Part shown: positions 2,040 to 33,992 of the stretch, piece by piece
How positions within the stretch are numbered: position 1 is the stretch's first letter
How the letters are laid out: every line of letters begins with the position of its first letter
Source: an uncultured archaeon
GTDB taxonomy: Archaea > Aenigmatarchaeota > Aenigmatarchaeia > CG10238-14 > SCSR01
Direction: 5' to 3'
Assembly: GCA_964366355.1 (NCBI GenBank)
Contig: CAYITO010000002.1
Coordinates: forward strand, 1 to 51,795
DNA: 51,795 nt
Program-made: the position numbers and the translations under genes
The notes under the pieces: generated by a model
Database searches by the model: none
The model's input: the letters and a program-made list of their open reading frames with translations, nothing else
Told to the model about the DNA's origin: nothing

Positions 2040-3107
2040 TTAGATAAGTCTGATTTTATTACCTCTAAAAATTGCAACTAAATTTCTAGAATATGTAATT
2101 CTACCTATAACATCGGCTTCAACTCTATTTCTTTCAAGAAAATCTAATAAATCATCTTTAGAATTTTTAGAAACAATAAAAGAAAAACCCCATCCCAAAT
2201 TGAAAGTTTTTAAGAATTCTTTATCAGTTAATGTTACACCTAAATCTTTAGCTGTATCTTGTACTAATTGAAAGATCGGTTGAGGTTTGAAGTTGTTGAA
2301 CTCAAATCCTATTTTACTATCGTTAAATTTCATCAATTTTCCAAACTTCAAATAAGCATCTCCTGTAATATGAACGGCAGCTTTAATTTTAAATTTTTTA
2401 GCAACTTTTGAAAATGATTCAAAATATACTTTAGTTGGCTTTAAAACTTCGTGGACAAGTTCCGTATCAAAACCATTAGGTATATAAAATGGATTATATT
2501 TACCGCCCCATTTTTTAAACAAAATTCTTCTAACTAATGATATACCATTACTATGCAATCCGGAACTTCTTAATCCTATTATTACGTCATCGATTTCAAG
2601 ATTATTCCCCCAAATTATTTCATTCTCAGTAAGTTCACCCACACAGCTGCAAATTATATGAAAAGGATTTTCAGATACACCATTAATTAATTCCTTTACG
2701 TCAGCAATTTCTCCTCCTACAATTGGAACTCGTGCCTGATTTGCCCCTTTCTTAATACCTTTAACTAATTCTGAAATAATTTTTGGTTCAGATTTATGTA
2801 TATCAATATTATCTGCGAGTGAAACTGGTTTAGCACCAGAACGAATAATATCATTTACAGTCATAGCTACAGCATCAATTCCTATAGTATCAAACTTGTT
2901 TGCCAATTGAGCTATCAGAACTTTCGTACCAACTCCTTCAATTACATGATCTTGATATTTTCCGTTGCCAACAGAATATATAGTATTGTAAGGTAGTTTT
3001 GTCATGGGATATTCATAAGCTTTTTCGAAATCACTAAGATTGGCTTTTGATTCTGCTCTAGAATCTCTATCAACACCTGCATCAGAATAGGTAATTTCTT
3101 TTTCCAT
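2040..3107 (-). CDS. purM: Phosphoribosylformylglycinamidine cyclo-ligase (AIR synthetase, PurM)
   Basis: PurM-like N- and C-domains (DAGVD ... VGGEIADV). The likely start is the internal Met MEKEITY at 3107, not the ORF-track start at 3218. Confidence 0.85.
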   Translation of the reverse strand: MEKEITYSDAGVDRDSRAESKANLSDFEKAYEYPMTKLPYNTIYSVGNGKYQDHVIEGVGTKVLIAQLANKFDTIGIDAVAMTVNDIIRSGAKPVSLADNIDIHKSEPKIISELVKGIKKGANQARVPIVGGEIADVKELINGVSENPFHIICSCVGELTENEIIWGNNLEIDDVIIGLRSSGLHSNGISLVRRILFKKWGGKYNPFYIPNGFDTELVHEVLKPTKVYFESFSKVAKKFKIKAAVHITGDAYLKFGKLMKFNDSKIGFEFNNFKPQPIFQLVQDTAKDLGVTLTDKEFLKTFNLGWGFSFIVSKNSKDDLLDFLERNRVEADVIGRITYSRNLVAIFRGNKIRLI

Positions 3108-3159
3108 ATCTCTACTTTTGACAGTAGAATTTATAAATTGACTGAAAACAAAGTGGATT

Positions 3160-3411
3160 ATGATGTTCTCTCTAGATATATCAGAGGTTGCAGAGAGGAG
3201 ACTAAAGAAATTTGACAAAGAACTTCAAAGAAGGTTCTTCAAGAAAGTAGAAAAGTTGAAAATAAATCCATATCATGGCAAACCTCTACGATACGGCTTA
3301 TCTGGTACGTGGGAACTGTATTTTGAGAAAAGTTTTAGAATTTTGTATTCCATAGATAAGAACAGTAAGAAAGTAACTATTGAATCTATATGGCACAAAG
3401 ACGAATTTTAG
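3160..3411 (+). CDS. RelE/ParE-family type II toxin (mRNA interferase-like)
   Basis: 83 aa. GKPLRYGLSGTWELYFEKSFRILYSIDKNSKKVTIESIWHKDEF is the canonical RelE/ParE C-terminal core. Confidence 0.75.
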   Translation: MMFSLDISEVAERRLKKFDKELQRRFFKKVEKLKINPYHGKPLRYGLSGTWELYFEKSFRILYSIDKNSKKVTIESIWHKDEF

Positions 3412-3617
3412 ATATTAAGCTCTTTTTTGACATCATCTAAGGATCTGACTTTACCTTTTTTAATTGCTTCCTTGCCAGCCATAACCTCTTTCAGCAATTT
3501 TGGATTAGACAAAATCTCCAAGGTATCTGTTAAAGACTCCATCTCCCGTTTAGTTGCCATTCTGTTCTCTATTCTCCTCAATTCCTTGTAGATGTCCTCC
3601 AGCTTTATTTGGGCCAT
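3408..3617 (-). CDS. Small antitoxin-like protein, convergent with the RelE toxin and overlapping it by 4 bp
   Basis: 69 aa. Its C-terminus EILSNPKLLKEVMAGKEAIKKGKVRSLDDVKKEL resembles type II antitoxin C-termini and the antitoxin at 14212. A TATA-like tttataaa lies about 27 bp upstream on the minus strand. Confidence 0.5.
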   Translation of the reverse strand: MAQIKLEDIYKELRRIENRMATKREMESLTDTLEILSNPKLLKEVMAGKEAIKKGKVRSLDDVKKELNI

Positions 3618-3850
3618 AATTAAGAAATATGTATTGTTATTTATAAGTTTTATAAATTGAAGGAAGAAAAGAAAGGGGTTGTTGGGGAATGTTATACCTT
3701 AAGGGCTTTATTTTGAAAGTTTTTTGAATGAACTTCCGTTTTGCCCTTATCCCTTCCTTTCCAACCAAAAGACATTTCTATTCAGGATATAAAAACTTTT
3801 CCCAAAAAAAATATACAAAAATTTAAAAACCACTGCATTTATTTTGTTAA

Positions 3851-4714: not shown

Positions 4715-5551
4715 TCAAGAGAAATACTCTGGAATTCTAATGAAATCATTGGCAAGCTGTTTAAGCGTTTTCCTATTCTCCGGCAAAGAACCTGCAATCA
4801 AATCTCTTCCTAAAGATATGACGAGTTTTAATACACCTGGGTTTAGAAGTAGCTTATCTCTTTTGAGGAGTCTAGATTCAAGAAGCTTAAAAGTATCTCT
4901 CAAATATCCAAATAAGCTGTCGCGCAAGGCAGTGGAATCTGAAAATCTATTGGGATTTATAACATAGTTATCAGAAGACTCTTTAGTTAAGACTCCCTGT
5001 TCCACCAAACTGTCAAAAACAGGTCTATATTCTTCCCTGAGTATATCGGCAGTGGGTCCTGATCTCATTGCCCTAATCCACGTTGGAGTCATGTAATAAT
5101 CAAACACGGGCTTTTCCACCATGTGCGATGCTATAGGAAGCAATAACGGGACTGCTGCATCACTGGCGCGCGTATGATAAGTTGAAAGTGTTATTCTAGT
5201 AAGTTCTTCCTTCGTGCCGAAGGCTAATGCAGCGACGTATTCGTCTTCATCCAGAGGTTGTACTTTAAATGGTAATCCTGTGCGTCGTCTAGTTGAAAAA
5301 CTCTGGAGAGCTTCCCTTGGCATATAGGTTATGTTAACTTGCGTTGGGAAATCATCGGTTCTAACATACTTTAAACCCAAAGTTCCCCGAGTTACGATAA
5401 CCATATCGACATCGGAATCTGGGTTGTGATAACCGTTGAATCGTGAACCTTCGCCATATGCTGCAAAACTATCTGGAGTATATAGTTCACGTGCCAAAAT
5501 TTTCAAGTCGCCGATGTTTAGTCCGCTGCTGACATCCACCGCTCCTTTCAT
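4715..5551 (-). CDS. Pol-beta-superfamily nucleotidyltransferase (KNTase-like), function unknown
   Basis: Carries the nucleotidyltransferase signature GS-x10-DSDVDMVIV. 278 aa with a helical C-terminal half. Confidence 0.5.
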   Translation of the reverse strand: MKGAVDVSSGLNIGDLKILARELYTPDSFAAYGEGSRFNGYHNPDSDVDMVIVTRGTLGLKYVRTDDFPTQVNITYMPREALQSFSTRRRTGLPFKVQPLDEDEYVAALAFGTKEELTRITLSTYHTRASDAAVPLLLPIASHMVEKPVFDYYMTPTWIRAMRSGPTADILREEYRPVFDSLVEQGVLTKESSDNYVINPNRFSDSTALRDSLFGYLRDTFKLLESRLLKRDKLLLNPGVLKLVISLGRDLIAGSLPENRKTLKQLANDFIRIPEYFS

Positions 5552-5716
5552 ATATCATCACCCAAGAGTTTCTTGATAGCGTATTCTACAAAATGGGACC
5601 TGTTCCTGAAAGCAGAGCTTCCCAGTATCGAATCCATATCTTGTAAAGTTTTCTCGTCGAGCGATATGCTTACTTTTTGCTTCATTTTACCACTAAGTAG
5701 TAAGAATTACTACTAT

Positions 5717-5757
5717 TTAAAGATTTCTATATTTCACTATATAATAGTAGTAACTAA
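5717..5757. repeat. 41-bp direct repeat copy A (ttaaagatttctatatttcactatataatagtagtaactaa). It is preceded by an inverted arm, ttactactatt, able to pair with aatagtagtaa
   Basis: Exact 41/41 identity with 6490..6530, read directly from the sequence. Confidence 0.9.
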
Positions 5758-5776
5758 AGAATATCGGTATCATCAA

Positions 5777-6091
5777 TTAAGCTTCTGGAAAGAATTGCTT
5801 AATCTTTTGTAAAATTTCTTGGGAATATCTAGGATTCAAACCCACCTGAACACCGTAATGCGTAGGCTTAGTTAGAATGAGGCCTTCTTTAACAAGTTCT
5901 TTAACTAATTTATCGATTCTACGAAGCCCTTCTTTTCCCAAATCTCTATTGCTCCAACCTTTCTTCAAATTTTCAAATGAAGTATGAGCTCCTCCCCATT
6001 TACCATGTCTAAATAATTTCAAAAGAATTCTGGATACAATTTGTTCGTCTGTAAACATTAGTCCACTTATAATACCTTTGGAAGGTAACAT
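5777..6091 (-). CDS. Hypothetical small protein, probably winged-helix, inside the repeat-bracketed cassette
   Basis: 104 aa ORF. Its start is 15 bp from the start of the divergent gene at 6106. No confident family assignment. Confidence 0.5.
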   Translation of the reverse strand: MLPSKGIISGLMFTDEQIVSRILLKLFRHGKWGGAHTSFENLKKGWSNRDLGKEGLRRIDKLVKELVKEGLILTKPTHYGVQVGLNPRYSQEILQKIKQFFPEA

Positions 6092-6105
6092 TTATATACC
6101 TTTAA

Positions 6106-6459
6106 ATGCTACACTATTCTATGGAAGATAAGACTCTGTTGATCGAAGCTTTAGGAGATAGTCCAACATTGCGCATAATAGATTTTTTTCTAGATAACCG
6201 TAGTGACTATTCCAAAAAGGAAATTATAGAGGCGACGGGTATGTCGAAAACCACTTTCTATAAAATTTGGGGCGCATTGAAGGAATTTTCGGTAGTGAAA
6301 TCCACAAGGAAATATGGAAAAGCACAATTGTTTTCCTTGGATGAAAGTAATGATGTAGTTAAGAAACTAATGGCTTTAGAATTTGCGCTCGGGAAACAGG
6401 CGATGGAAAAGGCAGTTGTAGAAAATAAGATCGCCATAGATGCTAAAAAGAAGCAGTAG
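6106..6459 (+). CDS. Archaeal winged helix-turn-helix transcriptional regulator
   Basis: 117 aa. LRIIDFFLDNRSDYSKKEIIEATGMSKTTFYKIWGALKEFSVV has a wHTH pattern. Confidence 0.6.
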   Translation: MLHYSMEDKTLLIEALGDSPTLRIIDFFLDNRSDYSKKEIIEATGMSKTTFYKIWGALKEFSVVKSTRKYGKAQLFSLDESNDVVKKLMALEFALGKQAMEKAVVENKIAIDAKKKQ

Positions 6460-6489
6460 AAGTGCAAGTGAAGAAATAATTTTCCTAGA

Positions 6490-6530
6490 TTAAAGATTTC
6501 TATATTTCACTATATAATAGTAGTAACTAA
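6490..6530. repeat. 41-bp direct repeat copy B
   Basis: Identical to 5717..5757. This copy lacks the upstream inverted arm. Confidence 0.9.
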
Positions 6531-6559
6531 TGATGGGGAAGGTCCCTAGAAGTACGAAA

Positions 6560-8449
6560 TCAAACAAGAAATGGCGGCAAATCAACTTTCGGTACTGCAA
6601 CAATGTATTCGTTGAATGCCAATATACCCTTATGCAGATTATCGCGCAAATATCCCCAACCATGTATGTAAACTGGATTAAATCCAGCAGGAGTTAAAAA
6701 ATAAATGTGTTCTATTCCTGCTTCTTCTAGTCGTTTATGGAATTCTTTTGTTTCCGTTTCAGACCAAATATCATTTATGCCTACATCTAGGTAAAGTGTC
6801 ATATGATTTATCTGCTCTTTAGGTGGTATTTTAACTTTATTAAAAATTACAAAATCGCCCTTTGTTGTAAAGGATATTGGATCATATAAAACATATCTTT
6901 GATAAAAACCACTATAACCTGCCAAAAACCCAAACAACTCAGGATGCCTAAATCCTATCCAAAAGGCGCCATGCCCACCAATAGAAAAACCCAAAATGCC
7001 CCGTGCTGATTTGTCTGCTATTGTTCTGTATGTGGAATCTATATATGGAATTAAATCCTTCACTATGTAGTCTTCATAATTGCCGCATGAACGGACTTCT
7101 GGATGTTTACTTACTGCAATGAAAGGATTGAACCCGCTACAACCATTTTCCAATCCACTGTCATCTATGTCGGGCATTACGAATATTATTTCTTCAAGAC
7201 CTTCTTTTGTAAGCTTATCCAAAGTTTTATCTATGTCCGCTTTTTTAAGCCAGGCATTATGGTCTTCTGCTGCTCCATGCATGAGATATAAAACTGGATA
7301 GTTTTTTGAACTAGAATAATAACTAGGTGGGAGGTATATGAGGTATTTTCTCTCCTTCTTCAAGGCTGGGCTATAAAAGCTCATCTCTGCAAAAGGTTGG
7401 CAATCCCCTTGCCCAATAGCGCACCAAGAACAAGTTCTACATGCCCAGTCAGAGGATGCAGACTTTATGGGTTTATAACTTCCATCAGAACATTTGTATA
7501 CACCTTGGTATGCTCCGCCACAACCAAGCCCCTGTTGCTGTTCTATTGTACCTTGATCATATTCCCCACATCTAACTCCTATGTATTCGTCACAAGTTAT
7601 TGGCTGAGATTCTATTGGTGATTCACTTCCCTGTGATTGACTTTTCCCAATAAGTGTAGGGGCACAAACACTCTGATAATCAAAATCTTGAGGCGGCTGT
7701 AGAAAGAAATTACAGCAATCACCATAACCTTCACATAAATTATCGCACCAGCATTCTTTACCATCACCGATACCAAATGATTTGCCACACTTATCTTTAG
7801 TACAGATAAGTCCAGCAGATTGTGGAATTCCTGATGATGTAGTAATCGGGGTCGGCGCAGATGATGGTTGCCCTCCGCAAAGCTGCTGATAATCAGAACA
7901 GCAATCTTTGTTACCAGTACAAATTGTATCACAGTAGCACGGCGGTGATGAGCCTAGTACTGGTTTATTATCTTTATTGCAATAGTTTTTACCGTCATCT
8001 GGATCAATATTTGCGCAACCACCAGAAGATTGAGGTGTTGGTTGTGGTGTGGGAGAAGGTGCAGCACCTTTGCAAACACTTTGATAACCTTGAGAGCCTG
8101 TGCAGCAATCACCATAACCTTCACATAAATTATCGCACCAGCATGGCTGAGAAGTAGAGGATACGCCTTCTCCACCGCATTTATTTTGGCAACTGCCTTC
8201 GTATGATGCAGATGGTATCGAAGTAGTGCTTACACACTGTCCATTGCTGCATGTAGTTCCTGAAGGGCATTTGATAAAATTCCAATCCTTGAAGCCATCG
8301 TTATTGATGTCTTTACATTCCCAAAGGAAATCAGTGCCTTGGCATACGGATGCCGTACATGCATCTTGTTGTGCCGTAACTATTAAATTAGATAATAGGA
8401 ATAACAAAGATCCTGTGACTGCAATAAAAAAGAAATATGAAAGTTTCAT
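6560..8449 (-). CDS. Secreted esterase (Esterase-D / putative-esterase fold, GFSIGGHG nucleophile elbow) with an N-terminal signal peptide and three somatomedin-B-like Cys-rich modules
   Basis: Signal peptide MKLSYFFFIAVTGSLLFLLS. The Cys-rich modules are ...CWCDNLCEGYGDCCTGSQGYQSVC, ...CYCDTICTGNKDCCSDYQQLC and ...CWCDNLCEGYGDCC...DYQSVC. The C-terminal half has a G-x-S-x-G esterase motif and a conserved His. Confidence 0.7.
   Translation of the reverse strand: MKLSYFFFIAVTGSLLFLLSNLIVTAQQDACTASVCQGTDFLWECKDINNDGFKDWNFIKCPSGTTCSNGQCVSTTSIPSASYEGSCQNKCGGEGVSSTSQPCWCDNLCEGYGDCCTGSQGYQSVCKGAAPSPTPQPTPQSSGGCANIDPDDGKNYCNKDNKPVLGSSPPCYCDTICTGNKDCCSDYQQLCGGQPSSAPTPITTSSGIPQSAGLICTKDKCGKSFGIGDGKECWCDNLCEGYGDCCNFFLQPPQDFDYQSVCAPTLIGKSQSQGSESPIESQPITCDEYIGVRCGEYDQGTIEQQQGLGCGGAYQGVYKCSDGSYKPIKSASSDWACRTCSWCAIGQGDCQPFAEMSFYSPALKKERKYLIYLPPSYYSSSKNYPVLYLMHGAAEDHNAWLKKADIDKTLDKLTKEGLEEIIFVMPDIDDSGLENGCSGFNPFIAVSKHPEVRSCGNYEDYIVKDLIPYIDSTYRTIADKSARGILGFSIGGHGAFWIGFRHPELFGFLAGYSGFYQRYVLYDPISFTTKGDFVIFNKVKIPPKEQINHMTLYLDVGINDIWSETETKEFHKRLEEAGIEHIYFLTPAGFNPVYIHGWGYLRDNLHKGILAFNEYIVAVPKVDLPPFLV
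7713..7754. repeat. Intragenic 42-nt exact duplication (copy 1) within the SMB-like modules
   Basis: cagcaatcaccataaccttcacataaattatcgcaccagcat is identical to 8103..8144. The offset is 390 nt, which is in frame. Confidence 0.9.
8103..8144. repeat. Intragenic 42-nt exact duplication (copy 2)
   Basis: Identical to 7713..7754. Confidence 0.9.
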
Positions 8450-10859: not shown

Positions 10860-10963
10860 ACAATGTTTTTAGAAATTTATATAATTGAAAATTTTGTAAT
10901 AACACGAAATATTGACTTAAATTAATGAAAGATTTAAATAGTATCAAATGGTAATATGTACAT

Positions 10964-11245
10964 ATGTCACTAAGAGTAGACCTAGACAGAGAATTGGAAA
11001 GAAAATTTAGAGAATTAGCCATGCGCAGATACGGTTTTTCCAAAGGGGCTATTAAGAAGGCTGCTGAAACAGCCATTAAAAAATGGACTTACGAAGAAAA
11101 AATAACTGAGACGATGAAGAAAAAAGGTAAAAGTGGAGTTAATTTGATAGTTGGTGGTCTAGCTCATTTAAGAGGTAAAAAAACGTCTGTTGAGTTGCAA
11201 CACGAGGCAAAAAAATTATGGACAAAAATTGCTGAGGACAAATGA
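10964..11245 (+). CDS. vapB: Ribbon-helix-helix (CopG-like) antitoxin, VapB-type
   Basis: N-terminal strand-helix-helix LRVDLDRELERKFRELAMRRYGFSKGAIKKAAETAIKKW. It overlaps the downstream PIN gene by 4 bp (ATGA). Confidence 0.7.
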   Translation: MSLRVDLDRELERKFRELAMRRYGFSKGAIKKAAETAIKKWTYEEKITETMKKKGKSGVNLIVGGLAHLRGKKTSVELQHEAKKLWTKIAEDK

Positions 11246-11649
11246 CATATTTCATAGATTCTAACATTTTTCTAGAACTTGAACTTGAAGATGAACGAAA
11301 AGACGAATGTGAGCAATTTCTAACAAAAATAGTCGAAGGGACAGAAGGCGGTATAATTTCTGACTTTATAGTATATTCGATACTTATAGAACTTACACAA
11401 AAATCTACACTTACTGTAGCTAAAAATTTTCTAAATTTTCTCGAGCAAACAACAAATATTACGATATTTGTTCCAAATACACAAATTTTATCAAATACAT
11501 TTAACTTCATTAAAAAATATAAATTAGATTTTGATGACGCATTGGTTGTATCTTGCATGATGGCCAATAAAATTAAGAGGTTAGTTTCTTTTGACAAAGA
11601 TTTTGATAAGGTAAATGAAATAAAAAGAATAGAACCAAATCAAATTTAA
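11242..11649 (+). CDS. vapC: PIN-domain toxin VapC
   Basis: FIDSNIF near the N-terminus and DFDDALVVSCMMANKIKRLVSFDKDF at the C-terminus, giving the PIN acidic residues. Confidence 0.8.
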   Translation: MTYFIDSNIFLELELEDERKDECEQFLTKIVEGTEGGIISDFIVYSILIELTQKSTLTVAKNFLNFLEQTTNITIFVPNTQILSNTFNFIKKYKLDFDDALVVSCMMANKIKRLVSFDKDFDKVNEIKRIEPNQI

Positions 11650-11665: not shown

Positions 11666-11706
11666 CCAAAGGATGCATTTGGAAATTTAAATAACTTTAA
11701 TCTATT
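11666..11706. repeat. About 41-bp motif downstream of VapC-1 (ccaaaggatgcatttggaaatttaaataactttaatctatt), copy 1
   Basis: About 90% identical to 12455..12496. It contains the short inverted repeat ccaaa / tttgg. Confidence 0.8.
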
Positions 11707-11774: not shown

Positions 11775-12011
11775 ATGAGAGAGGTAAAGGTAACTAGAAA
11801 ATACCAGATTACAATACCCGAGGATATACGTAAGGTACTTCAAATAACTATAGGTGAAAAGCTTCCTGTGGAGAGGAAAGGTAGGAACATAGTCATCGAA
11901 GCCAAAAAATCTATTGAAAAACCTTCCGACTATCTTTGGGGGATTTCCAAGAGGTCTACGAAAGTTGATGTTGTCGGACTGGTCAAGGGCTCTAGAAGAA
12001 AGATGAGATGA
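11775..12011 (+). CDS. vapB: AbrB/MazE/SpoVT-fold antitoxin, VapB-type
   Basis: KVTRKYQITIPEDIRKVLQITIGEKL is a swapped-hairpin motif. It overlaps the downstream PIN gene by 4 bp. Confidence 0.7.
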   Translation: MREVKVTRKYQITIPEDIRKVLQITIGEKLPVERKGRNIVIEAKKSIEKPSDYLWGISKRSTKVDVVGLVKGSRRKMR

Positions 12012-12442
12012 TGCAAAAGGCTTACATCGACACGAATATTTTTGATTATGTTGTATTAAGACATGAAATTTATGGCAAAGCTTGTAAAGAAATTTTGGAT
12101 GACATTGGAAGTGAATTGAATGCGTATTGCTCGTTTCTTGTACCTATAGAGATACTAGGCTCTCTGTCGGAAATTGAGATTGATATGGCATTTAAAGCAC
12201 TATCAACGTTTTTTGCATTTAAATTAACTCTTATAGAAATAGGTTCGAATCTTCTTTTAGAATCTAGTAAAATTATGAAAAGTACAAAGATAAATGGATA
12301 TGATGCTGTACATGTCGCAGCTATGAAAAGAGAAAATATCCATACTATAATCACTGAAAATTATAAAGATTTCAAAAAAATTCCTAGAATAAATATTGTT
12401 AGGCCTTTAAACTATAAAAAATGGAAAGAAAATTTAAAATAG
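12008..12442 (+). CDS. vapC: PIN-domain toxin VapC (second copy)
   Basis: YIDTNIF ... GYDAVHVAAMKRENIHTIITENYKDF. Confidence 0.8.
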   Translation: MMQKAYIDTNIFDYVVLRHEIYGKACKEILDDIGSELNAYCSFLVPIEILGSLSEIEIDMAFKALSTFFAFKLTLIEIGSNLLLESSKIMKSTKINGYDAVHVAAMKRENIHTIITENYKDFKKIPRINIVRPLNYKKWKENLK

Positions 12443-12454
12443 AGTATTCATATC

Positions 12455-12496
12455 CAAAAGGATGCGTTTGGAAATTTAAATACGTTTAATTTATTC
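12455..12496. repeat. About 41-bp motif downstream of VapC-2, copy 2
   Basis: ccaaaaggatgcgtttggaaatttaaatacgtttaatttatt, with 1 indel and 4 substitutions relative to copy 1. Confidence 0.8.
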
Positions 12497-21392: not shown

Positions 21393-21446
21393 CCAATACA
21401 CAACTTTTAAACCTTATCTACAAATCTATATTTACCCTGTGGTAAC

Positions 21447-25120: not shown

Positions 25121-25122
25121 TT

Positions 25123-28001: not shown

Positions 28002-28206
28002 AATAATCTTTATTTTTCCTTATTTATAAATATTTGTTTAAGCGAATCAGCCTCGCTTTCGTTTGTTATATTATTGTGAAACTCTTATATAAACCTGCTT
28101 TTTTACCATTTCACTATGTTATAATAGTTAATTATTGTTAGGCTATAGAAGGCCTTTCTGAAGTTTTAGCTTTATTTTCTGCTCTATTCGGCTTCGTTTT
28201 TTTATT

Positions 28207-28884
28207 CTACTGACGCTTTGCCACAAGAACAAACTGATACGCAAATATGGTGGGGAAAAGGACTGCCAAAAGATACAGGAAATTATAGATAATGCCGAAT
28301 TTGGACAATGACGGATAAACAAGCTGTATTGGTATGGGGGTAAATTTTATCCTCTCAATCTCAAATCTTCTCAACAGTTGAGTTGCAGACTTCAAGGTAA
28401 AAAATCTCAAATGGGTTCTATCTAAAATGCCTTTGTCTTGGTATCCAAACCTGCCGAATAACAGGTTTAACCGCATATATATATTGGCAACATTGGGCAA
28501 GGAAACTATAATTCTTCCGCCTTTTTTTAAAAATTTGGAAAAAAGGGCTAAAACTGCATCCGGATTCCTTAAATGCTCTAGTACATCTGCGAAGACGATA
28601 TAATCAAACCTCTCCTTTATCTTTGGAACAGATGCTTCCAAATCTAATGTGAAAACCCGTTTGTAGGCGCCCCTGCACCTTCTTGCAGCTTCCTTGTCTT
28701 TATCTATCCCAAAAACTGTACAACCTTTGTTCCTTATTAGTCTTCCAATTATGCCATCATAGCACCCGACATCCAAAACTTGAGTATTGGACTGGATTAA
28801 TTTTGCAATTTGGTTATGACTGCTAAACCGGTCATCTTTATAGGCGTATTTTTTTATCATAATATCACAAAGAATTAATTTCAT
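28207..28884 (-). CDS. Class I SAM-dependent methyltransferase
   Basis: VLDVGCYDGIIG (motif I) ... DYIVFADVLEHL. Confidence 0.75.
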   Translation of the reverse strand: MKLILCDIMIKKYAYKDDRFSSHNQIAKLIQSNTQVLDVGCYDGIIGRLIRNKGCTVFGIDKDKEAARRCRGAYKRVFTLDLEASVPKIKERFDYIVFADVLEHLRNPDAVLALFSKFLKKGGRIIVSLPNVANIYMRLNLLFGRFGYQDKGILDRTHLRFFTLKSATQLLRRFEIERIKFTPIPIQLVYPSLSKFGIIYNFLYLLAVLFPTIFAYQFVLVAKRQ

Positions 28885-28933
28885 TTATGGAGTATCTATA
28901 AGTTATTGATAAAATGGCACATGGTGTAGGAAT

Positions 28934-29683
28934 GTGGTTGAAAAGCCGAAAATAATCGTGGTAATTCTTGCGCAGAATTCTGAGAAGACTATTGGAAAAA
29001 CTTATCAAGACATTCCACATGGGTTAGTGAAGAAAATAATTATACATGACGATGCCAGCAAGGATCGGACAGTTTATATTGCCAAAAGACTTGGTTTAGA
29101 GACAATTGTACAAAAAATATCTAAAGGTTATGGCGGATCGCAAAAGGCTGCCTATACAGAAGCACTGAAGCAGAATGCCGATGTCATAGTAATGTTGCAT
29201 GCTGATTATCAATATGATCCAAAGAAAATTCCGGAATTAGTAAGACCTCTGATTGAAGGAAAGCGTGATATAATGCTCGGTTCTAGGATGATTGGCAAAG
29301 GTGCATTGAGAGGCAGAATGCCTTTGTGGAGATATGTGGGAAATAAGGTTCTCACCAAGATTGAAAACATAGTTCTAGGATTGGATTTATCGGAATTTCA
29401 CACCGGACTTAGGGCTTATAACAGAAACTTCCTTCAAACCATCCCATTTAAACTTAATTCGGACGATTTCGTTTTTGATCAGCAGGTTCTGATACAGGCT
29501 GTAGTTTTTGGCTTTAAAGAAAGGATTGGTGAAATTGGCATTCCCACCCGGTATTTCAAAGAAGGCTCAAGCATAAGTCTTAAAAATTCATTGATATACA
29601 CATTAGACACGGTTAAAAGTCTCTTAATATATATTCTACACAAATACAGAATTAAAACTTCTAAAAATTTGATTAGAAAGTGA
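28934..29683 (+). CDS. Family-2 glycosyltransferase (dolichyl-phosphate sugar synthase-like)
   Basis: IIVVILAQNSEKTIGKT ... IIHDDASKDRT ... GT-A fold DxD region. Confidence 0.75.
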   Translation: MVEKPKIIVVILAQNSEKTIGKTYQDIPHGLVKKIIIHDDASKDRTVYIAKRLGLETIVQKISKGYGGSQKAAYTEALKQNADVIVMLHADYQYDPKKIPELVRPLIEGKRDIMLGSRMIGKGALRGRMPLWRYVGNKVLTKIENIVLGLDLSEFHTGLRAYNRNFLQTIPFKLNSDDFVFDQQVLIQAVVFGFKERIGEIGIPTRYFKEGSSISLKNSLIYTLDTVKSLLIYILHKYRIKTSKNLIRK

Positions 29684-29733
29684 ATTGCCTGCATTTTTAT
29701 TTTATAAAGTGTCTATTCTAACTAACGTTAGAC

Positions 29734-30849
29734 ATGCGCATCGCAATAACGAAACCGCATATATCTACTAGAAATAAGATATTGATTCTGCTGATTTTAG
29801 GCATTATTGTTAGATTGTTATTTTGGTCTTCCAAATTGTCATTTGTTGACAACGAAAGCATTTCGCATTTAAGATATGCTGAAAGTATAATGAATTTGGA
29901 GATTCCTAAAACCCAGTGGATAGGCACAAAAGACGGTTTTTATTCTTATGAATCTTACCCACCTAGCCTATATTTAATTACAGCTTCTTTTGGAATTTTT
30001 GCATCTAATATTTTTTCATTCACTCTCTTGGCAAAAATCGTTAGCCTAATTTTTTCTTTATTGACTCTTGCAGTTAGTGCAATCTATTCGCTTAAAATGA
30101 AAAATCATTATGTAATAGCATTAGTTGCCCTGATTCCCTTAGAGTGGTTCGAATCCTTACCGAGGTTTAATAACGACATTGTAGTGGCGTTTTTCGCTTC
30201 TTTGGTATTCCTGGTTGCATTAAAGGAGATTAATGCCAAAAATATGATTATTCTCGCTTTGTTTACTTCGCTGGCTCTACTTTCAAAATTTACTGCCATA
30301 TTGCTATTGATACCCATGCTACTCTACATTTGGTTTAATTCAAAAAATCTCAAATTCATTTTAATTTTCCTGGCCATCACGGCTTTTATTGCAGGTCCAT
30401 GGTATTTGAGAAATCTATTGCTTTATGGAGATCCCTTATTTGTTCCTTACACAGAAGCCGAACAGGCGGGCCCTAAAAGTCTTGCCTTCTTTATGGAGGG
30501 CTATGTATTCGGATTCTTCCCTTTTTGCACACTTGGTTACATTGAGGACATAGTAATTTTAGGCGTATCTGTTTTTCTCATATATACCATAATGAGAGGC
30601 TTGGAGGAAAGGTTTAGGCATATGGCATCTTCCAAGATTGTTGATCCGGCCGCCTTGTTTCTCCCATTGATATTTGTTGTTTGGATAGCCGTTAAATATG
30701 TATTTCCAAGTGGATCTGCTAAATATCTCCTTCCAGCTCTATTGCCTCTGGCGGTTATTTCTAGTTCCGGAACTAAAAACAAGTATATCGTTTGGTTTGT
30801 TAGCATTAGTTTTGCCTATCTGTTTATCAAAGTTTTATTAACATGCTGA
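29734..30849 (+). CDS. Polytopic membrane protein, probably a GT-C-type glycosyltransferase (ArnT/PMT-like), paralog 1
   Basis: 371 aa with about 10 predicted TM helices. It sits in a glycosylation gene context. The fold assignment is inference. Confidence 0.45.
   Translation: MRIAITKPHISTRNKILILLILGIIVRLLFWSSKLSFVDNESISHLRYAESIMNLEIPKTQWIGTKDGFYSYESYPPSLYLITASFGIFASNIFSFTLLAKIVSLIFSLLTLAVSAIYSLKMKNHYVIALVALIPLEWFESLPRFNNDIVVAFFASLVFLVALKEINAKNMIILALFTSLALLSKFTAILLLIPMLLYIWFNSKNLKFILIFLAITAFIAGPWYLRNLLLYGDPLFVPYTEAEQAGPKSLAFFMEGYVFGFFPFCTLGYIEDIVILGVSVFLIYTIMRGLEERFRHMASSKIVDPAALFLPLIFVVWIAVKYVFPSGSAKYLLPALLPLAVISSSGTKNKYIVWFVSISFAYLFIKVLLTC
29864..30260. repeat. About 400-bp near-identical segment (copy 1) shared by the two membrane-protein paralogs
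   Basis: agcatttcgcatttaagatatgctgaaagtataatgaatttggag ... ggagattaat is matched almost base-for-base at 31584..31980. The first clear mismatches fall near 30233 and 30237. Confidence 0.85.
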
Positions 30850-30861
30850 TAAAGTTTTAGT

Positions 30862-31416
30862 ATGAATGTCATTTTAAAGATTCTATTTAAGTTTCGTGCC
30901 AAATACTATGCGAAACATCTTTTTCCATATTTAAAGGGAACTGACAAGGTTTTGGATATTGGTGCTGGAAGTGGCTTTATCTCTGAACATTTGGCAGAAA
31001 AATGCTCAATGGAATTGGTTGATGTTAAGGATTACAACCAAACCTCACTTCCTTTGAAGATATTTGATGGCGAACATTTGCCTTATAGAAATAGCTCATT
31101 CGATAAATGCATTCTTGTAACTGTACTGCATCATGCTAGCTTGCCAAGGCAAATAAAATTATTAAAAGAAGCCAAAAGAGTTGGCAAAAAAGTTATAATC
31201 ATCGAGGCATTGTATTATAATTCTATTCAAAGCGTGTGGTTAAAATTCTACGATTTATTTTTAAATTTTATAGCAGGTGTTCCCGTAAAATGGACTTTCC
31301 ACGATGACAAGACTTGGAAACAGTTGTTTGGAAAAGTTGGCTTGAAATTGAAATCGGAAAAAGAATTCCCAGGAGCTATCGGATTGATAAAATTAAAGCT
31401 ATATGAGTTAGCATGA
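30862..31416 (+). CDS. Class I SAM-dependent methyltransferase
   Basis: VLDIGAGSGFISEHL (motif I) ... ILVTVLHH. Confidence 0.7.
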   Translation: MNVILKILFKFRAKYYAKHLFPYLKGTDKVLDIGAGSGFISEHLAEKCSMELVDVKDYNQTSLPLKIFDGEHLPYRNSSFDKCILVTVLHHASLPRQIKLLKEAKRVGKKVIIIEALYYNSIQSVWLKFYDLFLNFIAGVPVKWTFHDDKTWKQLFGKVGLKLKSEKEFPGAIGLIKLKLYELA

Positions 31417-31583
31417 TATTTCTTTAGTTGACTATCATTTACTTAATACGTTATAATTTAATTAAAAGGTGATACGGGATAAAAGGTTTAATATCACTTC
31501 CTATAAAGCATAAGATAATTCTCTTATTAGGTATAGGTATTATACTTCAAATTGTATATTGGAGTACTCGAATAAATATTTTT

Positions 31584-31980
31584 GACCACGATAGCATTTC
31601 GCATTTAAGATATGCTGAAAGTATAATGAATTTGGAGATTCCTAAAACCCAGTGGATAGGCACAAAAGACGGTTTTTATTCTTATGAATCTTACCCACCT
31701 AGCCTATATTTAATTACAGCTTCTTTTGGAATTTTTGCATCTAATATTTTTTCATTCACTCTCTTGGCAAAAATCGTTAGCCTAATTTTTTCTTTATTGA
31801 CTCTTGCAGTTAGTGCAATCTATTCGCTTAAAATGAAAAATCATTATGTAATAGCATTAGTTGCCCTGATTCCCTTAGAGTGGTTCGAATCCTTACCGAG
31901 GTTTAATAACGACATTGTAGTGGCGTTTTTCGCTTCTTTGGTATTCCTGGTTGCATTAAAGGAGATTAATACCAAAAATG
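31584..31980. repeat. About 400-bp near-identical segment (copy 2)
   Basis: See 29864..30260. The 3' parts of the two genes are much more diverged, which indicates gene conversion or a recent partial duplication. Confidence 0.85.
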
Positions 31981-32597
31981 TGATTATTCTCGCTTTGTTT
32001 ACATCTTTTGCGCTGTTATCAAATTATAATGCATTGGTGCTCGCCTTAGTTACTTTATTTTACATTAAAAACAATTCCAAGAACAGAAAATTAGTTATAA
32101 TGTTTATAGCTATAGTAGCTTTGCTTGCAGGTCCATGGTATTTGAGAAATCTATTGCTTTATGGAGATCCCTTATATGTGCCTTCGCTGATTCATACTGA
32201 AGATTATAAGCCTGCCAGAGGAGCAGGAATATTTTTTGAAAATTATTTTTTAGGGTTCTTTCCTAGTTGTATTGTTGGGCTTCACTTAAATTACATAACC
32301 CTGTTTTTAACAATTCTTATTATATTTTTTACAATGAGAAATTTAGAGGACAGATTTAAACACATGTTATCTCTCAAGATTGTTGATCCGATTGCGTTAT
32401 TTCTTCCACTTTTGTTGATTAGCTGGATTTTATTTGGTTATACTTATTCTGATTTATTTTCGCCACGTTATTTAATTTCAGGCATTTTGCCGTTATCTGT
32501 TGTCGCTTCTTCTAGCATTAAATCTAAATACGGATTTTGGATCATTTACATTGGATTTATGTATTTCTTTTTTCATAATTTCATAAATTGTTTGTAG
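31626..32597 (+). CDS. Polytopic membrane protein paralog 2. No canonical start codon lies upstream, although about 50 homologous in-frame codons are present
   Basis: The in-frame upstream translation YGIKGLISLPIKHKIILLLGIGIILQIVYWSTRINIFDHDSISHLRYAESI aligns to paralog 1 residues 10-50. It contains no ATG/GTG/TTG back to the stop at 31470-31472. Confidence 0.55.
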   Translation: MNLEIPKTQWIGTKDGFYSYESYPPSLYLITASFGIFASNIFSFTLLAKIVSLIFSLLTLAVSAIYSLKMKNHYVIALVALIPLEWFESLPRFNNDIVVAFFASLVFLVALKEINTKNVIILALFTSFALLSNYNALVLALVTLFYIKNNSKNRKLVIMFIAIVALLAGPWYLRNLLLYGDPLYVPSLIHTEDYKPARGAGIFFENYFLGFFPSCIVGLHLNYITLFLTILIIFFTMRNLEDRFKHMLSLKIVDPIALFLPLLLISWILFGYTYSDLFSPRYLISGILPLSVVASSSIKSKYGFWIIYIGFMYFFFHNFINCL

Positions 32598-32606
32598 TGT
32601 ATGTGC

Positions 32607-32636
32607 ATGGTAAACGTAATCAAAGCCGACGGCAAG
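32607..32636. repeat. Decayed duplicate of the 5' end of the ATP-cone gene (atggtaaacgtaatcaaagccgacggcaag, giving MVNVIKADGKL*)
   Basis: 27/30 identical, apart from a 3-nt indel, to 33180..33212 (atggtggacgtaataaaagccgacggcagcaag). Confidence 0.8.
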
Positions 32637-32669
32637 CTTTAATAGAATGCCAGCGTATCTTTATTTTGT

Positions 32670-32912
32670 ATGACCATGAAATCTGCAACAAACGAGGAAA
32701 GACTGTTAAGGCACTTGGAACCGAAGATAAGGAGAATAGTGCATGAAACTCTAAAGGAGGCCTTACCCAACGAAATATATTATCCTCCAGAATATAAGCT
32801 GAAAAAGAGCTTTGTAAAAAGGGTGTTGGAAGCTCAAAGAAGAGTTAAAGAAGGCAATGGAAAGACCTACACTTACGAAGAATTTAAAAGGAAGTTTCTA
32901 AAAGGTTTGTAG
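32670..32912 (+). CDS. Antitoxin partner of the RelE-like toxin (family unassigned)
   Basis: 80 aa, directly upstream of and abutting the toxin gene. Confidence 0.45.
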   Translation: MTMKSATNEERLLRHLEPKIRRIVHETLKEALPNEIYYPPEYKLKKSFVKRVLEAQRRVKEGNGKTYTYEEFKRKFLKGL

Positions 32913-33179
32913 ATGGAAAATCCTTATGATATTAAGATTGAATCCAAACTTGAAAAGTTGCTTAACAAGATAAAAAAGAAGGATAGGATTTTATACGAAA
33001 GGATTATTAAACAGATGCTAAAATTGGCTGAAACTCCTAAGCAAGGAAAACCATTGAGAAACATTCTAAAAGGTAAATGGAGAGTGCAAATTGGTCCTTT
33101 CGTATTGGTTTATGCAATTGACGAGAATCAACATAAAGTAGTATTTTTAGAGTTTGAACACCATGACAGGGTGTATTGA
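32913..33179 (+). CDS. RelE/ParE-family type II toxin
   Basis: GKPLRNILKGKWRVQIGPFVLVYAIDENQHKVVFLEFEHHDRVY. Its stop TGA is immediately followed by the ATG of the next gene. Confidence 0.75.
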   Translation: MENPYDIKIESKLEKLLNKIKKKDRILYERIIKQMLKLAETPKQGKPLRNILKGKWRVQIGPFVLVYAIDENQHKVVFLEFEHHDRVY

Positions 33180-33992
33180 ATGGTGGACGTAATAAAAGCC
33201 GACGGCAGCAAGCAGCCTTTCGAAAAATATAAAGTGGTTAGAACCTGCCTTAGAATGAAGGTAGATAGGGATGCTGCAGAGGGGATAGCAAACAGTATAG
33301 AAAAGAAGCTGTATGAAGGAATTGCAACCAAGCAAATCCTAAAGATGATCTTCAGTTACATAAGTGTATACAAGCCCCAAATGAAGCACCAAATAGATTT
33401 GCGGGAGGCTGTATGCCTATTAAGACCGAAACCTGATTTTGAACATTTCGTTGGGATGCTTCTAAAGGCTGAAGGATATGAAGTCAAAACAAACAAAATC
33501 GTCGCAGGAAGATGTGTAGAACATGAAATTGACGCTATTGCTAACAAGAGGAATGAAGCTTTGTATGTGGAAGCAAAACATCACTACAAGCCGCACTCTT
33601 ATACAGGCCTTGATGTTTTCCTTGAAACTCAGGCTACTTTTGAGGACTTGATAGAAGGCAAGAACAATTTTTCAAAGGCAGTTGTAATAACAAATGCCAA
33701 ACTGTCTGAACATGCCAAAAGATATGCGGAATGCAAGAATATTTCGGCCATAGGCTGGAGATATCCGAATGAAAATGGATTGGAATCTATGATAGAAAAG
33801 AATAGATTGTATCCGGTCACATTACTCAAAGGTTTGGATGTTAACATGCAAGCAAGACTGGCAGATAAGGGGATTATTTTGTTGAGCCAGCTTGCTGAAT
33901 ATAATGCGGAAAAATTGAACAAGATGGCGAAGATTGGCAAATCTAAAGCTAATCAAATCTTAAGGAAAGCCCATGAAATTTTAGGAAGCTGA
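33180..33992 (+). CDS. ATP-cone domain fused to an Mrr-like (PD-(D/E)xK) restriction-endonuclease domain and a C-terminal helix-hairpin-helix
   Basis: N-terminus VIKADGSKQPFEKYKVVRTCLRMKVDRDAAEGIANSIEKKL is an ATP-cone. The middle, FEHFVGMLLKAEGYEV ... HEIDAIA ... YVEAKHH ... AVVITNAKLSEHAKRYAECKNISAIGW, is Mrr_cat-like. The C-terminus, LLKGLDVNMQARLADKGIILLSQLAEYNAEKLNKMAKIGKSKANQIL, is an HhH. Confidence 0.6.
   Translation: MVDVIKADGSKQPFEKYKVVRTCLRMKVDRDAAEGIANSIEKKLYEGIATKQILKMIFSYISVYKPQMKHQIDLREAVCLLRPKPDFEHFVGMLLKAEGYEVKTNKIVAGRCVEHEIDAIANKRNEALYVEAKHHYKPHSYTGLDVFLETQATFEDLIEGKNNFSKAVVITNAKLSEHAKRYAECKNISAIGWRYPNENGLESMIEKNRLYPVTLLKGLDVNMQARLADKGIILLSQLAEYNAEKLNKMAKIGKSKANQILRKAHEILGS

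Follow-up and report, generated by a model that had tools for sequence, protein, structure and literature searches.

Copied gene starts around small accessory cassettes in an archaeal purine-synthesis cluster look like scars of recombination with diverged DNA

Six small accessory cassettes, mostly toxin-antitoxin pairs, are present in the purine-synthesis cluster of an uncultured archaeon, each with the promoter or start of the neighbouring gene copied on both sides, and the question raised by this locus is how such an arrangement arose. We analysed the whole stretch of 51,795 nucleotides (hereafter the window), a Bathyarchaeia contig recovered from Hainich groundwater, and compared it with the corresponding loci of relatives (L followed by a number).

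Self-comparison of the window identified four direct-repeat pairs of 38-44 nt with 85-100% identity flanking cassettes of 365-770 bp, and these are the four main bracketed cassettes that an initial annotation of the sequence had put forward. BLAST E-values across the whole window were 3e-15 (wHTH), 4e-7 (VapBC-2), 3e-4 (purC) and 4e-3 (nuclease). Seven direct pairs lying no more than 4 kb apart were detected at E<0.01, three of which are accounted for by coding paralogy and are not cassette brackets, and no inverted pair within that distance was detected in the same comparison at E<1. Against the four main pairs, the chance expectation was about 0.06 per simulated or shuffled window. To the annotated list we add a duplication of the purL start and a pair at purM. 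Repeat length ranged from 12 to about 100 nt across the sites, with target-specific sequence at each.

That these repeats are chance likenesses of AT-rich promoters, or an artefact of metagenome assembly, is highly improbable. The purM (12 nt exact) and purS (15 nt exact) repeats are each insignificant alone and the coverage of the source contigs was low (about 4x), but the E-values of the long repeats, the lack of inverted pairs and the low chance expectation all speak against this reading. The cassette junctions also recurred in separate assemblies of three replicates and are therefore not misassemblies, and the relatives' arrangements were recovered from more than one assembly source (L001 = L176, L168 = L169). 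The chance or artefact reading is effectively refuted for the four long repeats, and the purM and purS cases were accepted as insertions because relatives show empty sites. The purS case is the RelE pseudogene module that had been ranked as weaker; its repeat is indeed only 15 nt of exact match, but its insertion was confirmed by the empty sites.

At purM, a promoter region is found on both sides of a convergent gene pair.
3130-3151: proximal copy, TATA-box region immediately upstream of purM (2040-3107, minus strand)
3152-3648: Cassette 1, ParE/RelE toxin 3160-3411 (plus strand) and 69-aa partner 3408-3617 (minus strand)
3649-3670: distal copy, native purM upstream region, now preceding the 69-aa gene
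The two copies are identical at 18 of 22 positions with a 12-nt exact core (TCAATTTATAAA), and the sequence upstream of the distal copy (ACATTCCCCAACAACCCCTTTC...) runs colinear with what natively precedes purM in L175. The toxin was assigned by Pfam (ParE_toxin, E=2e-7) and the cassette has a GC content of 34%. The convergent pair also adjoins purM in L177 and is missing from L175 and L178.

At the wHTH site, the repeat is a promoter.
5717-5760: full promoter copy upstream of an RHH gene (5548-5685, minus strand)
5761-6489: Cassette 2, divergent small winged-helix proteins 5777-6091 (minus strand) and 6106-6459 (plus strand)
6490-6533: 44-nt promoter stump adjoining the esterase stop codon (6560)
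The copies are identical at 41 of 41 positions (5717-5757 vs 6490-6530), or 43 of 44 over their full length. The full copy has its homologue in a conserved promoter that precedes the 170-aa/RHH45 operon (89% identity to L177 across 94 nt, 83% to L175), and the stump matches the L175/L177 promoter at 95% over 40-42 nt, after which similarity ends; this junction was found again in an independent assembly (L086). The winged-helix proteins gave weak HTH hits in Pfam and belong to a widespread GbsR/MarR-like family (best other match 71% identical). Different genes are present at this position in L175 and L177.

The purL site carries three promoter copies and two VapBC cassettes, and the purL start is duplicated too.
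10839-10896 (minus strand): proximal functional copy, promoter B' plus start A; purL = 8490-10853 (minus strand)
10964-11649 (plus strand): Cassette 3a, VapBC-1, 93-aa antitoxin and 135-aa PIN toxin (Pfam PIN, E=1.6e-13), GC 30%
11668-11706 (minus strand): middle promoter copy B, start codon absent, 90% identical to 12457-12495 over 39 nt
11775-12442 (plus strand): Cassette 3b, VapBC-2, MazE/AbrB antitoxin 11775-12011 (MazE_antitoxin, 1.3e-9) and PIN toxin 12008-12442 (PIN, 1.7e-11)
12437-12495 (minus strand): distal copy, promoter B'' plus pseudo-start A' (encodes MNTLF*)
The start pair (A 10839-10860, A' 12437-12458) shares 91% identity over 22 nt, identity between B' and the remaining purL promoter copies is 67-70%, and the tail of vapC2 runs antisense across purL-like sequence. 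The purL ATG was fixed at 10853 because PurL is 787 aa in all relatives.

At purS, the cassette separates the gene from a stump of its own upstream region.
14045-14059 (minus strand): proximal copy (AGATTATGAAATATT), includes the purS ATG; purS = 13803-14054 (minus strand)
14060-14762: Cassette 4, 61-aa gene 14212-14397 (plus strand) and frameshifted RelE 14394-~14640 (plus strand), the C-terminus of which carries on in the +1 frame
14763-14797 (minus strand): distal stump, native promoter, ATG + 10 nt, then a decayed remnant to about +32
The proximal copy is identical to 14763-14777 at 15 of 15 positions and is invariant across all six aligned purS 5' copies from five genomes. The distal stump matches the native purS upstream region of L169 at 35 of 35 positions, and those of L175 and L178 (-45..-1) at 37 of 43. 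Both Cassette 4 genes are called as genes in the ENA contigs.

The purC and nuclease sites each retain a pseudo-start that includes an ATG.
19050-19089 (plus strand): purC distal pseudo-start (MQLIRRGKVKDVY), stop after 5 codons, native upstream context kept
19090-19454: Cassette 5, insert of 365 bp with no intact gene
19455-19494 (plus strand): purC proximal functional start; purC = 19456-20286
32597-32634 (plus strand): nuclease distal pseudo-start (MVNVIKADGKL*), pairs with 33171-33207
32635-33170 (plus strand): Cassette 6, candidate antitoxin of 80 aa (32670-32912) plus ParE/RelE toxin 32913-33179
33171-33207 (plus strand): nuclease proximal functional start; ATP-cone/Mrr nuclease = 33180-33992
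The purC pair (40 nt, 85%) includes the purC ATG at 19456, and its six differences are each synonymous or R/K. No ORF of at least 50 aa was found on the plus strand of Cassette 5, where the only ORFs read by eye span about 29 and 39 codons. L168 carries an insert at the corresponding site that is homologous to the right ~110 nt of Cassette 5, and L168 has a purC pseudo-start of its own (L168 1115-1141 / 1434-1460, 27 nt at 89%). The nuclease pair (38 nt, 87%, one gap) includes the nuclease ATG at 33180, which the stop codon of the Cassette 6 toxin overlaps (Pfam ParE_toxin, 9.3e-11, with the alignment reaching the last profile position). The nuclease pseudo-start resembles the native start of L168 (ATGATAAACGTAATC) more closely than it does the functional start of the window (ATGGTGGACGTAATA). 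Pfam thus bore out the annotated toxin-antitoxin identities (PIN twice, MazE/AbrB, ParE/RelE twice), and at each insertion, as the annotation had noted, the downstream gene stays intact and a pseudo-start or promoter stump is left upstream.

Comparison with relatives (78-86% protein identity) revealed, for five of the six sites, a single repeat copy and no cassette, the empty site coinciding exactly with the repeat. Thus purC directly follows purA in L170, L172 and L174, purL directly follows a rhomboid gene in L175 and L177, purS directly faces purE in L169 and L175, the nuclease comes after an S-layer gene in L168, and one repeat copy leads directly into purM in L175 and L178. The purine gene backbone is ancestral, and the cassettes were inserted into it. 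Another species shares the purC and purM insertions, which are therefore old; among the genomes compared, the remaining four sites were found occupied in the window's own strain only. The rhomboid-purL spot holds two VapBC pairs in the window, HEPN-MNT in L001/L176, an IS200/IS605 TnpA in L178 and no cargo in L175 and L177. Many other variable genes in the same backbone carry no repeats, which is the expected outcome of clean two-sided homologous exchange.

Could a dedicated system, with a recombinase encoded elsewhere (integron-like, a tyrosine/serine integrase or Cas1-like), mobilise the cassettes and target gene starts? The purL site has been used repeatedly by different cargo, its layout is array-like (repeat-cassette-repeat-cassette-repeat), and archaeal att cores are similar in size to the 38-44-nt repeats. 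Integron cassettes are likewise small, promoterless or compact, often toxin-antitoxin pairs and sometimes arrayed, and in integrase att-site duplications direct repeats of about 40 bp flank elements that regenerate a gene end. Here, by contrast, no integrase or transposase was found by Pfam (cassette and accessory ORFs and a sample of others) or by reading the translations of the remaining ORFs, as the annotation had stated, and no tRNA gene was found in the window. No attC-like hairpins, attC structures or terminal inverted repeats were present at the cassettes, the six repeats share no motif or common core, and the relatives' loci contain no recombinase except the unrelated IS200 TnpA of L178. 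These results agree with the earlier view that IS and integron models, with their transposase or IntI, do not fit. They do not agree with a single recombinase: each repeat copies its local target and lengths vary eightfold, and target-specific repeats of 12 to about 100 nt argue against one recombinase or a fixed staggered cut. With two purL copies unlike in allelic origin as well (below), a dedicated system is very unlikely.

The closest known pattern is the "insertion with long target duplication" of bacterial restriction-modification units (2000, Gene 259:99; Furuta, Abe & Kobayashi 2010, PMC2853133; Lim et al. 2012, PMC3457768), a counterpart to an arrangement previously regarded as unexplained. 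Here too, direct repeats that exceed 30 bp and differ in length enclose a short unit of selfish or addictive genes, a single target copy in a related genome aligns with both of them, and the insert lacks a transposase or integrase, in line with the published criteria (PMC2853133). The locus differs in its cargo, where type II toxin-antitoxin pairs and small regulators take the place of restriction-modification genes, and in its archaeal host (no archaeal case passed the published screen; PMC2853133). In addition, six events crowd a single biosynthetic cluster, promoter and gene-start stumps make up the repeats, and there is evidence for different allelic origins of the two copies. Under such a duplication, 12-100 nt between two nicks would be filled in, giving copies identical at first and diverging later. 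The 41/41 wHTH repeat with its abrupt end, the clustering of four repeats at 38-44 nt and a possible GTGTAT microhomology at the RelE88 cassette's right-hand junction are consistent with this, but the wide spread of repeat lengths is not, and neither is the purL site.

In L176, the distal, non-functional purL copy is identical to the native sequence of L177 at 39 of 39 promoter and 53 of 57 coding positions (100%/93%), whereas the proximal, functional copy is 71% identical to L177 yet matches the native promoter of L175 at 33 of 36 positions (92%); duplication with later decay predicts the reverse. By purS (85%) and rhomboid (88%), L176 and L177 are sisters, but they are no closer in purL (81.4%, against 81.6% for L176-L175), so that a breakpoint falls at the cassette. 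The proximal purL promoter of the window is identical to the native promoter of L178 at 34 of 37 positions and the distal one to that of L175 at 35 of 38, while the two are 29/37 (78%) identical to each other, below either cross-species match. As L175 and L178 differ at nine positions and the proximal promoter differs from L178 at three, convergence would be required under duplication. The order B''-A'-VapBC2-B is also not duplication-insert-duplication, unless the most similar pair is the older. The two purL copies differ in allelic lineage of origin, the strong evidence for this coming from the purL site in two genomes, and this points to recombination with diverged donor DNA and not to a target-duplicating enzyme; we consider long target duplication possible but doubtful. 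A signal of two natural types at purS and purC was within the noise of AT-rich alignments. Among the purC, nuclease and purL copies, differences were mostly synonymous or conservative (7 of 11 substitutions synonymous), and relatives carry the variant codons as natural alleles.

Different allelic origins and the discordant L176 purL would also follow if a foreign cassette and a xenologous core gene had been added beside the resident gene, and the redundant resident later deleted down to its promoter and first codons; the window does contain other truncated or duplicated genes (a PEP carboxylase fragment, PMT_2 paralogues). This is unlikely, since random deletions should give widely varied stumps but the coding sequence retained is about 60 nt at most in all six, insertion plus deletion is demanded at each of six sites, and no intermediate with two full gene copies was found in the relatives' contigs examined.

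Our preferred explanation, to which we give about an even chance, is that the repeats are recombination scars, in which a resident 5' stump and an imported homeologous copy were joined through homology-anchored illegitimate or single-crossover recombination. On the best reading, a dedicated start-codon-targeted insertion mechanism is not needed; the scars look like sloppy recombination with the DNA of related strains, as known in bacteria. The conserved purine genes would serve as a backbone, with related Bathyarchaeia lineages bearing differing accessory genes in between. DNA of a diverged relative, linear or circular, would enter with a cassette and the promoter and 5' end of the adjoining core gene, or sometimes the entire gene. 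Homologous recombination within the shared gene would form one junction and an illegitimate event a few codons inside the resident gene the other; alternatively, a circle could give the same product by a single crossover in a short shared segment. The product would be a resident promoter and 5' stump, the cassette, and an intact gene joined to a promoter and start of imported, homeologous origin. Selection would retain only products with whole essential pur genes, and long repeats would recombine and delete the insert, so that persisting repeats would be short (~12-100 nt); addictive toxin-antitoxin pairs may additionally counter loss. The start-codon-proximal bias, for which the annotation had proposed a dedicated mechanism, can thus be explained by selection and survivorship. 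The data show directly that cassettes were inserted, that relatives have empty sites, that mobility functions are absent and that the two purL copies differ in allelic origin. In what order the steps took place, in what form the donor DNA arrived, and what selection and addiction contributed is what we infer. The authors of the long-target-duplication work also offered an alternative that involves homologous recombination with a diverged locus.

The recombination model alone does not predict that the stumps are all 5' ends, as found at all sites, and never 3' ends. The identical wHTH copies fit de novo duplication equally well, and ordinary homologous recombination would need more than the 12-15 nt of exact repeat found at purM and purS, which look more like microhomology joins. 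Homology-facilitated (one-sided) illegitimate recombination reportedly occurs in naturally transformable bacteria (de Vries & Wackernagel 2002; Prudhomme et al. 2002), in which it is said to have been demonstrated experimentally as insertion-deletion; we know of no demonstration in archaea. As proposed for this locus, foreign DNA next to a homologous anchor is integrated with one homologous junction and the other at microhomology (putative in the window), mobility genes are not needed, and donor-type sequence on the anchor side is accounted for, although a retained 5' stump, a duplication, is a special outcome of that process. In the minimal mobile elements reported from Neisseria (Saunders & Snyder 2002), strains likewise differ in the cassette at one position between conserved genes, with exchange via homologous recombination in the flanks, which matches the variable genes at every pur-gene junction; those elements have no flanking repeats, whereas six junctions here carry stumps.

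No circular or polymorphic form of a cassette was observed, exact-protein look-ups returning the same strain only, and no donor genome with a cassette beside the gene but without a stump was found among the relatives. A 421-nt conversion tract, 99-100% identical, between nearby paralogues in the window shows that direct-repeat recombination is active in this genome. The PEP carboxylase fragment is a 5' fragment at 50190-50711, and the PMT_2 paralogues lie in tandem around a methyltransferase.

The window (51.8 kb, 38% GC) is a Bathyarchaeia contig; nearly all of its PurL relatives are Bathyarchaeia. Exact look-ups of PurS, the winged-helix protein wHTH117 and the 45-aa RHH gene product (RHH45) found identical proteins only in Hainich groundwater well H51 assemblies; all matches were from the same H51 strain and gave no presence/absence polymorphism. 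For comparison we used contigs of about six related species (L001, L168-L170 and L172-L178, where L001 corresponds to L176 and L168 and L169 are one organism), reached via PurC and PurL homologues at 78-86% identity. PurL scans of genome and metagenome collections returned L001 as the sole close relative (83% identity), with the rest at most 69% identical. Small genes of 30-35% GC are scattered among the purine genes of the backbone.

Backbone genes of the window
Purine genes: purM, purQ, purL, purS, purE, purA, purC, purB, two purP
After the purP genes: scpB, dcd, an S-layer-like gene, an ATP-cone/Mrr nuclease gene

The four main bracketing repeats of the initial annotation were present as it described them (38-44 nt), confirming the observation, and its list was extended to six insertion events. 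The inserts are 365-771 bp long. In each case a proximal copy of the repeat belongs to the adjoining intact gene, and a distal copy lies on the far side of the cassette as a pseudo-start or promoter stump. Across sites the repeats range from 12 to about 100 nt, each copying its own local target, and the junctions were recovered in separate assemblies of three replicates.

Direct repeats at the cassettes (window coordinates)
purM TATA box: 12 nt exact, brackets a ParE/RelE pair
5717-5757 / 6490-6530: wHTH pair repeat, 41/41 identical, 43/44 over 44 nt
10839-10860 / 12437-12458: purL start duplicate, 22 nt, 91%
11668-11706 / 12457-12495: VapBC-2 repeat, 39 nt, 90%
14045-14059 / 14763-14777: purS repeat, 15 nt exact including the purS ATG, brackets a 61-aa gene and a frameshifted RelE
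19050-19089 / 19455-19494: purC repeat, 40 nt, 85%
32597-32634 / 33171-33207: nuclease repeat, 38 nt, 87%

The order at the purL site on the + strand is purL start and promoter, VapBC-1, promoter, VapBC-2, pseudo-start and promoter. In a BLAST self-comparison of the window, seven direct pairs within 4 kb were obtained at E<0.01 and no inverted pair below E=1. A seed-and-extend scan also gave seven direct and zero inverted pairs, compared to approximately 0.06 pairs per simulated or block-shuffled window. Three of the seven direct pairs reflect paralogy within coding sequence: two fall in a pair of PMT_2-like genes and one in the gene of a 629-aa Cys-rich esterase. The esterase pair, a 42-nt perfect direct repeat (7713-7754 / 8103-8144), is a domain repeat in the part of the gene that encodes the Cys-rich N-terminal region, unrelated to the cassettes. 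The short purM and purS repeats were non-significant alone and are supported as insertions by empty sites in relatives. The RelE-like ORF of the purS cassette (14394-14640, +) encodes 59 aa, and its reading resumes in the +1 frame (IDFQNKIIKIQVFDHRSRIYERL), which marks either a frameshifted RelE pseudogene or, in an assembly of low coverage, a sequencing error.

Relatives with empty sites at five of the six sites establish that these are real insertions. At purC, L170, L172 and L174 have purA immediately followed by purC with a spacer of 4-40 nt. The contig L168 is also occupied: its insertion comes with a separate purC pseudo-start (27 nt, 89%) and is homologous in its right part to the insert of the window. 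The event therefore either predates the split of the two lineages or is recurrent. A reading of the 365-bp purC insert as a decayed form of the 112/119-aa gene found at purA/purC in relatives was rejected on comparison. At purS, the gene faces purE directly in L169 and L175; the distal copy of the window together with 20 nt upstream is 35/35 identical to the native promoter of L169, and the repeat (15 nt exact) perhaps extends to about 37 nt. At purM, the native upstream region is uninterrupted in L175 and L178, the window and L177 have the inserted pair in common, placed right after the TATA box, and the repeat spans 12-22 nt. The nuclease gene of L168 directly follows the S-layer gene, with neither the cassette of RelE88 (the ParE/RelE toxin at the nuclease) nor a 4.5-kb methyltransferase/glycosyltransferase island that occupies 28131-32596 of the window between the S-layer-like gene and the nuclease. 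No flanking repeat was found for this island, with its left junction placed at about 28131.

At purL, rhomboid is followed directly by purL in L175 and L177. In L176 a HEPN-MNT pair sits between two copies of the purL promoter and first 20 codons (83 nt, 67% identical, E=2e-7). L178 carries an IS200/IS605-type TnpA (Y1_Tnp; 2133-2816) exactly in the rhomboid/purL spacer, with hairpin ends and no promoter/start repeat of the kind that brackets the HEPN-MNT pair. With two VapBC pairs in the window, HEPN-MNT in L176 and TnpA in L178, this spot is an insertion hot spot for unrelated kinds of element.

In L175 and L177 the sequence of the wHTH repeat (41-44 nt) recurs, at 95% over 40-42 nt, as the conserved promoter of an operon comprising a 170-aa gene, RHH45 and a nucleotidyltransferase gene. 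The promoter is single-copy there, but its neighbouring genes differ from those of the window, where the second copy is a 44-nt stump beside the esterase gene. The 170-aa gene, which lies between promoter and RHH45 in L177 (4310-4865) and L175 (6887-7449), is missing from the window (5686-5716), and the promoter and 5' leader are joined directly to the RHH45 start codon. RHH45 and a 278-aa protein without Pfam match (4715-5685, -) are kept in L175 (45 aa and 279 aa) and could form a toxin-antitoxin-like backbone pair of an uncharacterised kind. A protein search with wHTH117 showed a widespread family with no near-identical copy elsewhere, and thus no sign of recent transfer.

The two copies at purL differ in origin. 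The non-functional distal copy of L176 is identical to the native purL 5' region of L177 at 39/39 promoter and 53/57 coding positions, while its functional proximal copy has 71% identity to L177 and matches the native promoter of L175 at 33/36 positions. L176 and L177 are sisters at purS (85%) and rhomboid (88%), but their purL genes share only 81.4%, compared to 81.6% between L176 and L175; this drop places a phylogenetic breakpoint at the cassette. In L176 the distal copy is thus the stump of the resident gene, and the proximal promoter and start were imported with the cassette from another lineage, probably along with the whole of purL. A two-step variant of the explanation favoured below, in which a xenologous gene copy was acquired and the resident gene was then deleted, would leave the same two lineages side by side in L176, and we regard it as improbable.

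In the window, the promoter of the proximal purL copy matches L178 at 34/37 positions and that of the distal copy matches L175 at 35/38, with 29/37 identity between the two copies and nine differences between L175 and L178. Duplication followed by decay would need several convergent changes to give these matches. The key result is that the purL copies in the window and L176 are not simple duplicates. At purC, the nuclease and purL, most of the substitutions that separate the copies are synonymous or conservative (7/11 synonymous), and the variant codons are natural alleles in relatives. The distal nuclease pseudo-start of the window is nearer to the native start of L168 than the window's own functional start is. 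Donor-type (discordant) sequence on the anchor side was seen in L176, and the window evidence is at the promoter level only. The evidence for different origin is solid only at purL, in two genomes; a comparison of two natural upstream types at purS and purC gave a signal within the noise of AT-rich alignments.

A serious rival is that each repeat arose de novo as a long duplication of the resident target. The wHTH copies, identical at 41/41 positions, are compatible with target duplication, but the purL copies of L176 and the window match different lineages, and on balance we consider this explanation rather unlikely. The 12-15-nt repeats look like microhomology joins. A GTGTAT match, a possible microhomology, was seen at the RelE88/nuclease junction.

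Known classes of element did not account for the cassettes. No integrase or transposase was detected in the cassettes or in the window ORFs scanned with Pfam or read as translations, and the window yielded no tRNA gene. Terminal inverted repeats and attC-like palindromes or hairpins were absent from the cassette ends, inverted-repeat searches were negative, and no motif recurred across the six repeats or across the cassette termini. Viral-contig scans returned no relatives of RelE88 or of VapC2, the PIN toxin of the second VapBC cassette. An IS, transposon or MITE origin was rejected on the lack of terminal inverted repeats, the lack of a transposase in the window and the spread in repeat length; an integron on the lack of IntI or another integrase and of imperfect palindromes at the ends, with repeats that copy the local target; and an integrase-mediated integrative element on the lack of an integrase in the element, a tRNA in the window and a common att core. 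The integrase evidence covers this one contig and bears on an integrase acting in cis rather than in trans from elsewhere in the genome. The spread in length and the target specificity of the repeats speak against one site-specific recombinase and against a staggered cut of fixed length.

The initial annotation is partly supported: the insertions are real and are not accounted for by IS or integron models, whereas its uncharacterised start-codon-targeted mechanism or dedicated recombinase is neither needed nor favoured, given no shared motif, variable repeat length and purL copies of different origin. Among 115 PurL loci, upstream duplicates of the purL start numbered 16 on the same strand and zero on the opposite strand (E<0.01), and those other than L001 lay in neighbouring coding sequence (purM and others) and were rejected as compositional or paralogous rather than stumps. 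Scanning for repeats in loci from other Bathyarchaeia and from Dehalococcoidia (1.2 Mb) returned mostly paralogues and a CRISPR array, so on this sample the repeat-bracket pattern is not general.

The closest described pattern is insertion with long target duplication, reported by the Kobayashi group for bacterial restriction-modification units that lack mobility genes, lie between repeats of >30 bp whose length varies, have an empty-site counterpart holding a single repeat copy and arise by an unknown mechanism; their screen yielded no archaeal case (PMC2853133). As an alternative, the group also weighed homologous recombination with a diverged locus (PMC3457768). Our cassettes are alike in that both repeat copies align with a single empty-site sequence at five sites (purC, L170/L172/L174; purL, L175/L177; purS, L169/L175; nuclease, L168; purM, L175/L178), and in having no mobility genes and inserts below 20 kb. 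Repeats exceed 30 bp at four sites (38-44 nt), with purM and purS below this length. They are unlike in cargo (VapBC, RelE/ParE pairs, wHTH and a decayed insert, not restriction-modification), in their archaeal host, in density, with six events packed into 33 kb of a single biosynthetic cluster, in repeats that are gene starts or promoters and in direct evidence that one copy was imported. Sulfolobus vapBC loci have been reported beside degenerate IS copies, unlike the present situation. The literature searched held nothing specific on repeat-flanked toxin-antitoxin cassettes in archaea and nothing useful on duplication outcomes of homology-facilitated illegitimate recombination.

We favour homology-anchored recombination with diverged donor DNA. 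This could take the form of homologous exchange in a core gene with an illegitimate join a few codons into the resident gene, or of a circle carrying the cassette and the gene's 5' region, integrated by a single crossover. Selection would keep the pur genes intact, long direct repeats would be unstable and toxin-antitoxin pairs addictive, which together would explain the short 5' stumps and the preponderance of toxin-antitoxin cargo. The window pattern is also similar to the outcome of homology-facilitated illegitimate recombination and to 'minimal mobile elements' in Neisseria. More speculatively, toxin-antitoxin and other small cassettes in this Bathyarchaeia clade could be truly mobile, each bringing along a short stretch of a conserved gene's promoter or start as a 'homing arm'; they would loop out between the repeats and re-enter the same start in other genomes as circles, through host recombination or an undiscovered trans-acting enzyme, with addiction protecting the unstable repeat-flanked insert. 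We think this quite doubtful; if true, cassette arrays would be built up at gene starts by a system that needs no integrase and is addressed by homology.

The locus suggests a concrete, testable mechanism, homology-anchored illegitimate recombination leaving 5' stumps. It provides six dated snapshots within a single conserved operon; five of them have an empty-site counterpart in relatives, and a donor/recipient signature is kept at purL in L176. It extends the long-target-duplication pattern to Archaea and to toxin-antitoxin cargo, and bears on how toxin-antitoxin modules enter chromosomes without mobility genes and on how small accessory genes are exchanged among archaea in which no competence or conjugation system is known. 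Gene calling and promoter prediction in metagenome-assembled genomes can also go wrong at short pseudo-starts and duplicated promoters of this kind.

Elsewhere in the backbone, junctions such as purC/purB are occupied by a different gene or genes in each genome, without detectable repeats (purC/purB: window 20287-21446; L168 2280-4253; L170 3534-3962; L172 6872-8562; L173 1115-1381; L174 3530-4255). By analogy, this variation resembles the cassette replacement between conserved flanks described for 'minimal mobile elements'. The tandem PMT_2-like paralogues (29734-30849 and 31626-32597; 68% protein identity overall), which flank a SAM methyltransferase gene (30862-31416), share a 421-nt tract at 99-100% identity (29846-30266 / 31582-32002). 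The tract looks like recent gene conversion or a large-scale repeat-insert-repeat layout, and as a conversion tract it indicates that repeat-mediated recombination is active in the genome. Finally, a PEP carboxylase ORF (50190-50711, -) matches archaeal PF14010 only up to about position 147 of the 493-position profile, its continuation being absent in every frame, and forms a 5' gene stump beside ftsZ.
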